Below are positions 10,196 through 61,356 of a DNA stretch of 64,000 bases, in pieces (within the stretch, counting starts at the first letter, position 1; each line of letters begins with the position of its first letter). Position numbers and translations under genes: made by a program. This DNA is from Escherichia coli. Its GTDB lineage: Bacteria; Pseudomonadota; Gammaproteobacteria; Enterobacterales; Enterobacteriaceae. A model generated the notes under the pieces. That model had not been told where the DNA came from. It made no database searches and saw only the letters and a program-made list of their open reading frames with translations. The stretch lies in the NCBI RefSeq assembly GCF_013122565.1, contig NZ_CP053258.1; one strand, 5' to 3'.

Positions 10196-10239
10196 GCCGG
10201 ATGCGGCGTGAACGCCTTATCCGGCCTACAGTCAGCAAC
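10196..10239 (-). repeat. REP element in the aceA-aceK intercistronic region
   Basis: gccggatgcggcgtgaacgccttatccggcctac is a near-consensus REP; a REP in this spacer is a classic feature of the ace operon. Confidence 0.8.
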
Positions 10240-10251
10240 GGTTGTTGTTGC

Positions 10252-11556
10252 TTAGAACTGCGATTCTTCGGTGGAGCCAGTTAGCGCGGTAACTGACGAC
10301 GTACCGCCCTGAATAATGGTCGTCACTTTATCGAAATAACCTGTACCCACTTCCTGCTGGTGAGATACGAAGGTATAGCCATCTTTCGCAGCGGCAAATT
10401 CCGGCTGCTGCACTTTCTCAACATAGTGCTTCATACCCTCGCCCTGGGCATAGGCGTTTGCCAGGTCGAACATGTTGAACCACATGCTGTGGATACCTGC
10501 CAGGGTGATGAACTGGAACTTGTAGCCCATATCCGACAGCTGCTGCTGGAAGCTGGCAATAGTTTTGTCGTCGAGGTTTTTCTGCCAGTTGAACGACGGC
10601 GAGCAGTTATAAGCCAGCAGTTTGCCTGGATATTTCGCGTGGATAGCTTGTGCAAAGCGACGCGCCAGTTCCAGATCCGGCGTGGAGGTTTCACACCATA
10701 CCAGGTCAGCATATGGCGCATACGCCAGGCCACGGCTGATCGCTTGCTCAATGCCCGCATGAGTACGGAAGAAGCCTTCACTGGTACGCTCGCCGGTAAT
10801 AAATTCGCTGTCATACGGGTCGCAATCGGAGGTGATCAGATCCGCCGCATCGGCATCGGTACGAGCAACCAGCAGAGTCGGAACGCCCGTCACGTCAGCC
10901 GCCAGACGCGCCGCAACCAGTTTCTGAATAGCTTCCTGAGTTGGCACCAAAACTTTGCCGCCCATGTGACCGCATTTCTTCACTGACGCCAGCTGATCTT
11001 CGAAGTGAACTGCCGCTGCACCGGCTTCAATCATCGCTTTCATCAGTTCAAAGGCATTCAGGACACCGCCAAAACCGGCTTCCGCATCGGCAACGATCGG
11101 CAGGAAGTAATCGACATAGCGCGGATCGCCCGGCTCAATACCCGCGGACCATTGGATCTGATCCGCACGGCGGAAGGTGTTGTTGATCCGCTCCACCACA
11201 GCTGGCACCGAGTTTGCCGGATAGAGCGACTGATCCGGATACATGCTGGCCGCCAGGTTAGCGTCCGCCGCTACCTGCCATCCCGACAGATAGACCGCTT
11301 CAATACCCGCTTTCGCCTGTTGCAGCGCCTGACCGCCAGTCAGTGCACCGAGGCTGTTGATGTAGCCTTTTTTCGACTCGCCATGCAGCAGACGCCACAT
11401 TTTCGCCGCGCCCAGTTGCGCCAGCGTGCATTCAGGATTGACTGAACCGCGTAATTTCACCACATCTTCCGCGCTGTATGGGCGAGTAATGCCTTCCCAA
11501 CGCGGTTGAGTCCACTCTTTCTGTAATTCTTCAATTTGTTGTGTACGGGTTTTCAT
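10252..11556 (-). CDS. aceA: Isocitrate lyase
   Basis: ORF 10252-11571; internal start [32 protein letters not shown] gives 434 aa. Confidence 0.95.
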
Positions 11557-15012: not shown

Positions 15013-15051
15013 GCGTAAGCTGGATAAGACGCGCCAGCGTCGCATCCGGCA
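15013..15051 (-). repeat. REP-like element between yjaB and the rrnE terminator
   Basis: Minus-strand tgccggatgcgacgctggcgcgtcttatccagcttacgc fits the REP pattern. Confidence 0.5.
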
Positions 15052-15109: not shown

Positions 15110-15229
15110 ATGCCTGGCAGTTCCCTACTCTCGCATGGGGAGACCCCACACTACCATCGGCGCTACGGCGTTTCACTTCTGAGTTCGGCATGGGGTCAGG
15201 TGGGACCACCGCGCTACGGCCGCCAGGCA
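15110..15229 (-). rRNA. rrfE: 5S ribosomal RNA (rrnE operon)
   Basis: 120-nt match to the remembered E. coli 5S sequence (TGCCTGGCGGC...GGAACTGCCAGGCAT) in reverse complement. Confidence 0.95.
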
Positions 15230-15323
15230 AATTCTGTTTTATTAACCCGCTTATCGCCGGTTAATGTAATCTGTATCAGGCTGAAAATCTTCTCTCAATC
15301 CGCCAAAACATCTTCGGCGTTGT

Positions 15324-18227
<2,904 letters not shown>

Positions 18228-18411
18228 TCACAACCCGAAGATGTTTCACTTCAGAGTTGCGAAAATTTGAGAGACTCACGAACAACATTCGTTGTTCAGT
18301 GTTTCAATTTTCAGCTTGATCCAGATTTTTAAAGAGCAAATATCTCAAACATCACCCGAAGATGAGTTTTGAGATATTGAGGTCGGCGACTTTCACTCAC
18401 AAACCAGCAAG

Positions 18412-18487
18412 TGGCGTCCCCTAGGGGATTCGAACCCCTGTTACCGCCGTGAAAGGGCGGTGTCCTGGGCCTCTAGACGAAGGGGAC
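18412..18487 (-). tRNA. gltV: tRNA-Glu (anticodon UUC) in the 16S-23S spacer
   Basis: Reverse complement equals GTCCCCTTCGTCTAGAGGCCCAGGACACCGCCCTTTCACGGCGGTAACAGGGGTTCGAATCCCCTAGGGGACGCCA. Confidence 0.95.
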
Positions 18488-18572
18488 GTATCAGTCTGCT
18501 TCGCAAGACGCCTTGCTTTTCACTTTCTATCAGACAATCTGTGTGAGCACTGCAAAGTACAGTTCTTTAAGG

Positions 18573-20114
<1,542 letters not shown>

Positions 20115-28779: not shown

Positions 28780-29451
28780 TTAGGGCTGATTTGCTGTATA
28801 GCGCACGAACGCCGGACGTTCCGAGGCCACCGCGTCCGCCCAGCGCGTTGGCTCCGGCAGACGATAGCCTTTCATGCAGCGTTGTACCCACGCCAGCGCG
28901 CTGTCCACGCTGACCCGATGGCCGGTAGCGATAAACAACGGGTTACAGCGCGCTTTGCTGCGCCAGACCCAGGCCAGCTGCTCGCCTTTATCCATCAGTG
29001 GGGCCAGCGCGCCCGGTTCGCTGGAGAGCGGTTCGAATTTACCGCAGAGCCGTTTTTTCGCCACGCCAATGGTCGGCACATCCACCAGCAAACCAAAATG
29101 GCTGGCAACGCCAAGACGGCGAGGATGCGAGATCCCGTGACCATCGACAAACACTAAATCCGGCTTTTGCGACAGCATCTCCCACGCTGCCAGCAGCGCA
29201 GGATATTCGCGGAAGGAGAGAAAACCTGGAATGTAAGGCATGGTGGTGGCGATGCGGGCCACTTTATACTCCACCAGCTCAAGCGAGGGGTATTTCAGCA
29301 GCACCATCGCCGCTCGCGTCACTTCTCCGCCCTGCTCAAACCCGACATCGGCTCCGGCGATCAGATCCGGTGGATCTTTATCGAGTTGATCCTCGCGGAT
29401 CACAGAAGAAGCCAGTTCGATTTGTTGAGCGCGTAATGACGCGAGATCCAT
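28780..29451 (-). CDS. nfi: Endonuclease V
   Basis: 223-aa [55 protein letters not shown]... Confidence 0.9.
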
Positions 29452-29607
29452 AATCGCTCCTTAGAGCCTGGTTCAACAGGCGTAATTGTTGAAGGCAGTT
29501 TGAGGCCGGACAGCGCGGAAAAACCGGAGCGTACACGTAGTACGTGAGGATTTTGAGCACTGCCCGGCCTCAAAATGGCAAATAAAATAGCCTGATGGAC
29601 CAGGCTC

Positions 29608-30672
29608 TTAGCGGTGATACTGTTCAGACAGTCGATGCACTGCCTCCACAAACACGCCAGCATGTTCTGGCGGCACATCCTGATGAATGCCGTGACCAAG
29701 GTTAAAGACATGACCTTCGCCGTGACCGAAACCTACAAGTATAGTCGCGACTTCTTCTTCAATGCGGGCAGGCGGCGCGTACAGCATCGACGGATCCATA
29801 TTACCCTGCAACGCGACTTTATTGCCCACACGGCGGCGCGCATCGGCGATGTCCGTTGTCCAGTCGAGGCCCAGCGCATCGCAACCGGTTTCTGCCATGG
29901 CTTCCAGCCACTGTCCGCCGCCTTTGGTAAACAGCGTGACCGGTACGCGGCGACCGTCGTTTTCACGCAGTAAACCATCAACAATTTTATGCATGTAATA
30001 AAGCGAGAACTGTTGATAATCGCGCCCGGTAAGCACGCCGCCCCAGGTGTCGAAAATCATCACAGCCTGAGCACCGGCTTTAATCTGCGCATTCAGATAC
30101 AAAGTGACGCTTTTCGCCAGTTTATCGAGCAGAGCGTGCAGCGCCTGCGGATCGGCATACATCATTTTTTTGATCACGGTGAACGCTTTGCTGCTGCCGC
30201 CTTCCACCATGTAGGTCGCCAGCGTCCACGGGCTGCCGGAAAAACCAATCAGCGGCACTTCGCCTTTCAGTTCGCGACGAATGGTACGCACCGCGTTCAT
30301 CACGTACCCCAGTTCATCTTCCGGGTCCGGAATTGGCAGTTTATCGACGTCAGCTTTGCAGGTGACTGGCGAGGTAAAACGCGGACCTTCTCCGGCTTCA
30401 AAATAGAGCCCTAACCCCATCGCGTCCGGCACGGTGAGGATATCGGAAAAGAGGATCGCCGCATCCAGCGGGTAGCGACGCAGCGGTTGCAAAGTCACTT
30501 CGCACGCCAGCTCGGCGTTTTTGCACAGCGACATAAAATCGCCCGCCTGGGCGCGCGTGGCTTTATATTCCGGTAGATAGCGACCCGCCTGGCGCATCAT
30601 CCATACTGGAGTGACATCAACGGGCTGGCGCAGCAGCGCCCGCAGATAACGATCGTTTTTAAGTTCGGTCAT
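29608..30672 (-). CDS. hemE: Uroporphyrinogen decarboxylase
   Basis: 354-aa [53 protein letters not shown]... Confidence 0.95.
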
Positions 30673-32056: not shown

Positions 32057-32109
32057 GTTCTGCGCTGTTAACGCGTAATTTACATTCAACGCCCCGTTTG
32101 TGGGGGCTA

Positions 32110-32205
32110 ATTTCTTGTCGGAGTGCCTTAACTGGCTGAGACCGTTTATTCGGGATCCGCGGAACCTGATCAGGCTAATACCTGCGAAGGGAACAAGAGT
32201 TAATC
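32110..32205 (+). promoter_or_regulatory. TPP (thi-box) riboswitch in the thiC leader
   Basis: ctgagaccgtttattcgggatccgcggaacctgatcaggctaatacctgcgaagggaa contains the conserved thi-box core (CTGAGA...ACCTGATC.GG.TAATGCC.GCG.AGGGAA); boundaries approximate. Confidence 0.85.
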
Positions 32206-32286
32206 TGCTATCGCATCGCCTTTGCGGCGATCGTCTCTTGCTTCATCCGTCGTCTGACAAGCCACGTCCTTAACTTTTTGGAATGA

Positions 32287-37879: not shown

Positions 37880-38070
37880 AATACTCAACTATGATAGAGA
37901 CGAAAATAAGAACACATGTTCTCATCTTCCAGGATGCAGCAGACTGAAGAAATTCAGACATCCCGCAACCTGCGATTATCGCAAGGTCAAGGCAAAGTCC
38001 GGTAATGGCGTTCTGAATACCAGAGATAATTCTCTGGCGAAACCCACCTTAAGGTGGGTTTTGTTATTTT
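37880..38070 (+). ncRNA. Candidate small transcript (about 190 nt) between thiH and htrC, bounded by a sigma-70-like promoter and a canonical intrinsic terminator
   Basis: Promoter-like TTGAGC-17 bp-TGTAAT at 37845-37873; terminator hairpin aacccacc-ttaa-ggtgggtt at 38041-38060 followed by ttgttatttt. Transcript ends are predicted, not observed. Confidence 0.35.
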
Positions 38071-56344: not shown

Positions 56345-56464
56345 ATGCCTGGCAGTTCCCTACTCTCGCATGGGGAGACCCCACACTACCATCGGCGCTA
56401 CGGCGTTTCACTTCTGAGTTCGGCATGGGGTCAGGTGGGACCACCGCGCTACGGCCGCCAGGCA
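56345..56464 (-). rRNA. rrfB: 5S ribosomal RNA (rrnB operon)
   Basis: 120-nt reverse-complement match to E. coli 5S rRNA. Confidence 0.95.
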
Positions 56465-56556
56465 AATTCTGTTTTATCAGACCGCTTCTGCGTTCTGATT
56501 TAATCTGTATCAGGCTGAAAATCTTCTCTCATCCGCCAAAACACCTTCGGCGTTGT

Positions 56557-59460
<2,904 letters not shown>

Positions 59461-59653
59461 TCACAACCCGAAGATGTTTCTTACGATTCATCATCGTGTC
59501 GCGAAAATTTGAGAGACTCACGAACAACTTTCGTTGTTCAGTGTTTCAATTTTCAGCTTGATCCAGATTTTTAAAGAGCAAATATCTCAAACATCACCCG
59601 AAGATGAGTTTTGAGATATTAAGGCAGGTGACTTTCACTCACAAACCAGCAAG

Positions 59654-59729
59654 TGGCGTCCCCTAGGGGATTCGAACCCCTGTTACCGCCGTGAAAGGGC
59701 GGTGTCCTGGGCCTCTAGACGAAGGGGAC
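59654..59729 (-). tRNA. gltT: tRNA-Glu (anticodon UUC) in the 16S-23S spacer
   Basis: Identical 76-nt tRNA-Glu sequence in reverse complement. Confidence 0.95.
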
Positions 59730-59814
59730 GTATCAGTCTGCTTCGCAAGACGCCTTGCTTTTCACTTTCTATCAGACAATCTGTGTGAGCACTGCAAAGT
59801 ACGCTTCTTTAAGG

Positions 59815-61356
<1,542 letters not shown>

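Follow-up and report, generated by a model that had tools for sequence, protein, structure and literature searches.

The stretch of DNA considered here (referred to below as the window) comprises 64,000 nucleotides of the Escherichia coli contig NZ_CP053258.1. On the minus strand of the window, the list of open reading frames, taken together with a comparison with K-12, gives the gene order rsd/nudC-hemE-nfi-yjaG-hupA, with hemE and nfi being separated by a spacer of 156 nt (29452-29607). Elsewhere in the window are found two rRNA operons (15112-20114 and 56347-61356), a TPP riboswitch (32109-32209), sroH (37902-38062) and REP-like sequences at 887-949, 1842-1855, 10216-10229 and 15015-15028. 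The features of the hemE-nfi spacer and its borders, together with the evidence used to assign each, are as follows.

29449-29451, minus strand: start codon (ATG) of nfi (ORF 28780-29451, which aligns with K-12 nfi)
29452-29460, minus strand: original 9-nt hemE-nfi spacer, including the nfi Shine-Dalgarno sequence (window compared with K-12)
29461-29463: nfi-side copy of the target-site duplication, reading TTA on the plus strand and TAA on the gene strand (window compared with K-12 and with other filled alleles)
29464-29607: 144-bp element, most probably a MITE, of an Enterobacterales-wide family that is probably RSA/BEE95 (absence from the site in other genomes and presence of paralogous copies)
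29464-29481: terminal inverted repeat at the family left end, GAGCCTGGTTCAACAGGC (sequence and repeat search)
29496-29577: inner long hairpin, with arms at 29496-29525 and 29548-29577 and a central palindrome at 29534-29546 (repeats and folding)
29579-29606, minus strand: terminator-like motif directly 3' of the hemE stop codon, consisting of the hairpin AGCCUGGUCCAUCAGGCU (29606-29589) followed by AUUUUAUUUG (consensus scan)
29590-29607: terminal inverted repeat at the family right end, GCCTGATGGACCAGGCTC (sequence, repeat search and conservation in the family)
29608-29610, minus strand: stop codon (TAA) of hemE, doubling as the copy of the target-site duplication on the hemE side (ORF 29608-30672 and comparison with K-12)

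In a preliminary description made from the sequence alone, the spacer was said to be filled in its entirety by a nested imperfect palindrome. A palindrome is indeed found there, although it covers 144 of the 156 nt, with the other 12 nt, on the nfi side, corresponding to the duplicated TAA and the original 9-nt spacer. On the gene strand, the latter reads GGAGCGATT in the window vs. GGAGTGATT in K-12. Both pairs of arms that had been listed are present, with the outer arms (gagcctggttcaacagg, at 29464-29480, and cctgatggaccaggctc) and the inner arms (tttgaggccggacagcg, at 29499-29515, and cactgcccggcctcaaa) each being complementary at 15 of 17 positions. The central palindrome cacgta-g-tacgtg is likewise found at 29534-29546. 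The coordinates given for the left arms were correct, whereas those given for the right arms were off by one, with the outer right arm lying at 29591-29607 and the inner at 29558-29574. In a repeat search, the inner arms extended to 30 nt with an 80% match (29496-29525 with 29548-29577) and the outer arms to 29 nt with a 79% match (29453-29481 with 29590-29618). The left terminal inverted repeat is itself a small palindrome, GCCTG-N6-CAGGC. The only ORFs that overlap the 144-bp element are short ones of the kind expected by chance.

When RNA folding of the spacer was predicted, as proposed in that description, values of -73.7 kcal/mol for the gene strand and -78.3 kcal/mol for the plus strand were obtained. 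Shuffled versions of the spacer gave means of -40 and -43 kcal/mol, respectively (z = -9.1 and -8.8), with none of 200 shuffles folding as well as the real sequence. The nested palindrome is real and lies far above chance.

Occupancy of the site and the dispersed family

In K-12 MG1655, the last position of hemE is 4198780 and the first of nfi is 4198790, such that the spacer is of 9 bp (junction caccgcTAAggagtgattATG). In the window, the junction reads caccgcTAA, then the 144 bp of the element and then TAAggagcgattATG. K-12 contains one TAA at this position while the window contains two, which flank the insert. Occupancy of the site was scored with a 461-bp query spanning it, with filled sites being those matched over the full query and all others being matched as two pieces covering 314 bp. 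Between hemE and nfi, the insert was present in 308 of 5,420 complete E. coli genomes (~6%) and absent from the other 5,112, with empty sites being 147 bp shorter than filled sites (314 vs. 461 bp). Within the element, filled alleles in other E. coli lineages differ from that of the window only at 29473 and 29476; in the flanks, they differ by 0.9-1.5%. Taken together, these differences point to a single old insertion that would now be found in several backgrounds. At the two positions, the window contains T (29473) and A (29476), whereas the other filled alleles contain C and C. The two terminal inverted repeats of the window copy match at 16 of 18 positions, as compared with 17 of 18 for the other E. 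coli alleles; given the better match of the latter, the window copy seems to have drifted slightly.

A search for other copies, also proposed in the preliminary description, was performed using the 156-nt spacer as query and returned 23,151 places in 5,425 of 5,426 E. coli genomes, with a median of five and a maximum of nine family copies per genome. Those E. coli copies found outside hemE-nfi share 60-90% identity with the window element, the closest being ~87-88% identical, while the closest copy in any organism, one from Photorhabdus, is 91-93% identical. In E. coli, six other loci with a copy were located, namely, cysP-ucpA, pheM-pheS, rlmL/ycbX, qseE-qseG, glnA-glnL and pyrH-frr, with occupancy of the glnA-glnL and pyrH-frr sites likewise varying between genomes. 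K-12 derivatives present six family places. Large plasmids of Pantoea, Klebsiella, Citrobacter, Salmonella and Enterobacter were moreover found to contain copies. When each species was represented by one genome, a pattern scan revealed genomic copies at at least 120 loci in more than 15 genera, including Citrobacter, Enterobacter, Klebsiella, Kluyvera, Serratia, Photorhabdus, Pectobacterium, Dickeya, Erwinia, Pantoea, Yersinia, Buttiauxella, Leminorella, Mangrovibacter and others. Orthologous sites can be shared across species, as in the case of cysP-ucpA in E. coli and a Citrobacter. No annotated feature was seen at the element among the E. coli matches listed, no repeat is annotated at the pheM-pheS copy in the MG1655 record and no annotation was found at the cysP-ucpA match in the K-12 derivative MFDpir.

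Several further observations on the family were made. Many copies separate neighboring genes that share a strand and are probably co-transcribed, such as pheM-pheS, Pantoea malF-malG, qseE-qseG and pyrH-frr (1148-1265 of fetched locus L141), with the TAA stop codon of the upstream gene being the target for several of the copies so placed. The pheM-pheS copy sits between the pheST attenuator (leader) and pheS. A longer variant of 200-207 bp, in which a nested GC-rich palindromic insert of ~60 bp occupies one fixed position in the 3' arm, was found in Salmonella (mglB-galS, 1201-1412 of locus L012), Citrobacter and a soil metagenome-assembled genome. Finally, a 234-bp contig in an assembly of Methylobacterium mesophilicum matches the window element over 132 nt with 87.9% identity, the same stretch and the same identity as seen with the E. 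coli cysP-ucpA copy; this contig probably reflects enterobacterial contamination of the assembly.

Most copies are 143-145 bp in length, begin and end as GAGCC...GGCTC and present 18-nt terminal inverted repeats, with these ends being conserved throughout the family and each terminus corresponding to a small palindrome of its own, GCCTR-N6-YAGGC. The termini of IS1031-group elements also begin with GAG. When the flanks of the 81 copies with automatically locatable ends were considered, identical 3-bp sequences were found on both sides in 44, these being TAA in 23 copies, TTA in 21 and nothing else. In the remaining delimited copies, it is mostly a single flank base that differs. As TAA and TTA are reverse complements, the element would enter a TWA target in either orientation. 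In Klebsiella indica TOUT106, at least 15 copies are present. The 15 that were delimited share a mean pairwise identity of 96% and all contain perfect flanks (TAA in eight, TTA in seven), suggestive of a recent burst of transposition in this species. At one K. indica locus (L120, ~1874-2170), two copies are found back to back, with one TAA in common. The duplicated TAA serves as the stop codon of an ORF of 100 codons or more in eight of 59 delimited copies and likewise in the copy of the window, with the Pantoea malF-malG copy offering an example. Insertions into stop codons are unsurprising, since TAA is both the target and a common stop codon.

Terminal inverted repeats, a target-site duplication of fixed length, a small, non-coding and multicopy body, and the existence of both filled and empty sites are the hallmarks of a MITE, and all are seen here. 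Of the identities offered in the preliminary description, that of a miniature palindromic repeat is the one borne out, by the dispersed copies, by a site that is empty in ~94% of E. coli genomes and by the 3-bp target duplication. In our estimation, the palindrome is very probably (at a probability of about 0.88) a mobile-element insertion of the MITE type, rather than a regulatory structure built for the hemE-nfi operon. According to this reading, the target of the MITE would have been the hemE stop codon, TAA, a triplet that was duplicated upon insertion, with one TAA copy still terminating hemE and the other adjoining the untouched nfi ribosome-binding site. The hairpin shape would then be a property of the repeat family and not of the hemE-nfi operon.

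We infer that the family is moved in trans by an IS5-family DDE transposase of the IS427/IS1031-like groups. The 3-bp TNA/TWA duplication of these groups is found here as TAA or TTA only. IS1237 duplicates TAA and IS1031-group elements recognise three nucleotides, with both belonging to the IS5 family (PMC2516522). This assignment draws on the duplication and the termini, with no autonomous partner presenting matching ends having been found. Specifically, in the 1.15 Mb of flanking DNA that was fetched, strict and relaxed patterns detected no matching ends paired at the spacing of an IS, the relaxed matches in the fetched loci being noise that was not accompanied by matching TAA/TTA flanks, and a blastn search of the plasmid collection with a 42-nt end (E up to 10) yielded no insertion sequence with a matching end. 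The end motifs to be expected of such a partner are GAGCCTATCCCA...TGGGATAGGCTC.

Predicted effects of the insert on the hemE-nfi transcript

hemE and nfi are reportedly co-transcribed, as Guo, Ding and Weiss are said to have described in 1997; a literature search on this co-transcription yielded nothing usable. The '+' orientation of the family corresponds to the plus strand of the window, such that a hemE-nfi mRNA carries the reverse complement of the element. With the insert, the distance between the hemE stop codon and the nfi start codon is 156 nt instead of 9 nt, and this transcript would contain a hairpin of high stability together with a weak motif resembling a terminator. As the two genes, formerly 9 nt apart, are now separated, translational coupling, if any, should have ended.

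The terminator-like motif was flagged on the minus strand by a consensus scan and consists of 29606-29589 followed by ATTTTATTTG. Such motifs were flagged at both ends of the element, pointing inward. As read in the mRNA, the element begins with 18 nt that are predicted to form a 5' hairpin of 6-7 pairs (-8.6 kcal/mol), with the U-run that follows being interrupted. The predicted inner helix contains 18 contiguous pairs and continues further (~20 bp), a length that in principle would suffice for RNase III. Folding also showed the nfi Shine-Dalgarno sequence, which is intact, to be predicted as partly unpaired. Scanning the minus strand for a promoter inside the element that faces nfi flagged none.

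It is possible, although we would not favor it, that the insertion has a measurable side effect on the expression of nfi or of the downstream gene yjaG, a proposal that is compatible with the MITE explanation. Partial termination, cleavage by RNase III, loss of coupling and protection of the hemE mRNA from 3'-exonucleases are all possible routes. The stretched stop-to-start distance and the inward terminator-like motifs speak for such an effect, as does the expectation that the 5' hairpin, which AUUUUAUUUG follows, would form ahead of the long-range pairing. The stem of a different repeat, a REP-derived one in K-12 GlnZ RNA, is moreover cut by RNase III in vitro (bioRxiv 10.1101/2022.04.01.486790). 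Still, the 5' hairpin is weak for an intrinsic terminator and its U-run is broken, and the nfi Shine-Dalgarno sequence is kept, with part of it predicted to be unpaired. Furthermore, qseE and qseG, which are neighbors on one strand, are separated by a copy in the same orientation; if these two genes are co-transcribed, this speaks against strong termination. Effects on nfi through loss of coupling, weak termination or RNase III cleavage can be described as plausible.

By analogy, the best model for what the insert may do to nfi would be the Correia elements (NEMIS/CREE) of Neisseria. These are similarly MITEs of ~100-160 bp that occupy operon spacers and contribute a long hairpin to the mRNA, yet their host, their sequence and their target duplication, which is TA, are not those of the present family. 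RNase III processes the Correia hairpins, which can influence how neighboring genes are expressed.

Constraint on folding and relation to other repeats

The preliminary description had called for covariation to be sought across orthologous hemE-nfi spacers. Covariation was not seen across those spacers but rather among the copies of the family. For this, 48 distinct family copies were aligned and the structure was predicted by RNAalifold, which returned the same nested hairpin, with 31 pairs. Compensatory double changes were found in 12 of the 31 pairs, with one pair, for example, being A-U in 23 copies, C-G in 16 and G-C in seven. In this alignment, in which the search pattern dictated part of the 3' arm and the copies are mutually related, 95.5% of the cells are paired and 117 are double-change cells, as compared with 39 in column shuffles, with the observed 117 being reached in none of 500 shuffles. 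When the partner was slid by 1-3 columns, only 2-21 double-change cells were counted. Local hairpins at the ends and the long-range pairing are both possible.

As the compensatory changes are spread over the body of the element, beyond what binding by a transposase would need, some selection on folding, or else hairpin repair, should also be at work. The orientation of those copies found between co-directional ORFs is unbiased (29 vs. 29), and so does not point to a role in host transcripts that depends on the strand. The constraint on folding is real and fits a symmetric property of a selfish element, acting either at the level of DNA or on either strand; repair within the hairpin could be the source of this constraint.

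These results bear on a second proposal, namely, that the hairpin is a functional module, for RNA processing or insulation or as a DNA structure, that is kept in operon spacers and 3' UTRs. Apart from the excess of double changes and the 12 compensatory pairs, the retention of copies at sites that are orthologous between species (for example, cysP-ucpA of E. coli and of a Citrobacter) and the presence of one copy inside the O111-type GlnZ sRNA (PMC9731577) agree with such a role. However, orientation is evenly split, the hemE-nfi, glnA-glnL and pyrH-frr sites are filled in only some E. coli genomes, and the burst in K. indica, with its near-identical copies and fresh duplications, is the behavior of a selfish element. 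In addition, covariation could also stem from hairpin repair or from the spread of a few master copies whose arms match, and the search pattern in part determined which sequences entered the alignment. We thus regard the functional module as rather unlikely.

Far less probable still is that a cis-regulatory RNA evolved in place, either as an attenuator or as an RNase III site through which nfi would be uncoupled from hemE. The very stable fold of the mRNA strand (z of -9.1), the hairpin and U-run directly 3' of the hemE stop codon and the ~20-bp inner helix that might in principle serve RNase III are what such a structure would present. These are outweighed by the ~94% of E. coli, including K-12, in which the spacer is of 9 bp and contains no such structure, by the same sequence being found with target-site duplications at unrelated loci in many genera, and by the lack of orientation bias in the family. 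Because the ancestral spacer was of 9 bp, the attenuator and the RNase III site put forward in the preliminary description are unsupported as the origin of the palindrome.

Lastly, membership in REP/BIME, REPIN (RAYT) or ERIC/IRU is barely conceivable, since, although the element is palindromic, intergenic and repeated, with a small GC-rich hairpin at each terminus, the ERIC core is absent from the window, REP tails lie elsewhere in the window, the element presents 3-bp TAA/TTA duplications whereas ERIC is flanked by TA (PMC3184786), and neither K-12 glnZ (REP) nor K-12 narS (ERIC-like) matches the family.

The preliminary description was correct in considering the palindrome to be neither REP-like nor in possession of the ERIC core. 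Matches to the REP tail (...CTTATCCGGCCTAC) are found at 887-949, 1842, 10216 and 15015, with none in the element, and the ERIC2 primer core gave no match anywhere in the window when up to three mismatches were allowed. REP/BIME and REPINs, the latter associated with RAYT transposases, resemble the present family in being short GC-rich hairpins in intergenic DNA but have a different consensus, with the GTAG tag not being conserved at the ends of the present family. REP and REPIN elements are not known to present a target duplication. ERIC elements are flanked by TA. ERIC/IRU (127 bp), like the present family, is enterobacterial, imperfectly palindromic, MITE-like, often co-transcribed and polymorphic between strains, yet the sequences are unrelated and the present family instead duplicates TAA/TTA. 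In Rfam, no family reached threshold, either for the element region (E up to 10) or for the whole window at gathering thresholds. The best Rfam match, over one half of the element, was to the Xanthomonas sRNA sX9 (29494-29545, minus strand; 31.7 bits vs. a threshold of 44; E 0.0011). This and the sub-threshold microRNA matches were taken as chance similarity between hairpins.

The family is probably that of the RSA/BEE95 repeats of enterobacteria. RSA repeats, reportedly named (RSA or BEE95) in the 1990s, are 152 bp in length and present in six copies in K-12. The family seen here is likewise dispersed, intergenic, palindromic, enterobacterial, ~150 bp in length and of low copy number, with K-12-type genomes containing six places; no difference between the two is known, the likeness being drawn from descriptions of RSA. 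As it is absent from K-12, the hemE-nfi copy cannot be one of the classic RSA copies. A literature search for an RSA reference sequence or a description of the element returned citations of the name in passages of PMC3751351 and PMC5604773. In the first, RSA is also termed BEE95, with Bachellier & Hofnung 1996 being cited, while the passage in the second refers to 19 RSA-like copies in Salmonella and to 'RSA-like' SPED repeats.

Two 3' UTR-derived sRNAs were noted in the course of these comparisons. A family copy is found within the ~230-nt 'O111-type' glnA 3' UTR, the source of GlnZ sRNA (glnA-glnL of E. coli S10, 1150-1480 of locus L137; also 11300-11520 of locus L048). This copy has been described only as a 98-nt insertion flanked by AGGUUCAAA repeats (PMC9731577). 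At the equivalent place, K-12 GlnZ contains a true REP. The 'large insertion' of K-12 GlnZ was considered as a family member and rejected, being a REP with no match to the family. The 3' UTR of K-12 narK, the source of NarS sRNA, contains an ERIC-like element (838-1021 of locus L140) and so represents another dispersed repeat embedded in a 3' UTR sRNA. The 170-nt insertion of K-12 NarS was similarly rejected as a family member, being this ERIC-like element and not matching the family.

In terms of mobility, the element behaves like the MITEs derived from the IS5 family (IS427/IS1031) and their eukaryotic counterparts, the Tourist MITEs of PIF/Harbinger, which also produce a 3-bp TAA/TTA duplication, have short terminal inverted repeats, are non-coding and present both filled and empty sites. 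Unlike these, the present family is self-complementary and covaries over its whole body and not at its ends alone. A speculative extension, to which we assign little likelihood, is that the family represents a bacterial counterpart of the Tourist MITEs that targets TAA/TTA, relies on an IS5-type transposase, is still active (in Klebsiella indica) and comprises a 144-bp hairpin selected for folding. Were this so, the copies found at stop codons and in operon spacers (hemE-nfi, malF-malG and qseE-qseG) and in 3' UTRs (O111-type GlnZ) would be ready-made modules for RNA processing or insulation, and such modules would rewire the expression of operons differently in different strains.

The hemE-nfi copy adds a new, strain-polymorphic example to a known kind of element, with nothing about it that is surprising for a MITE. 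Such a copy explains the 147-bp length polymorphism between the adjacent genes hemE and nfi, and the two alleles, with spacers of 9 and 156 nt, form a natural pair that could be used to address the effects of a MITE hairpin on translational coupling and read-through. More broadly, these findings describe an old and little-studied enterobacterial family in which TAA/TTA duplications are clear, compensatory evolution is strong and one species appears to have undergone a recent burst.
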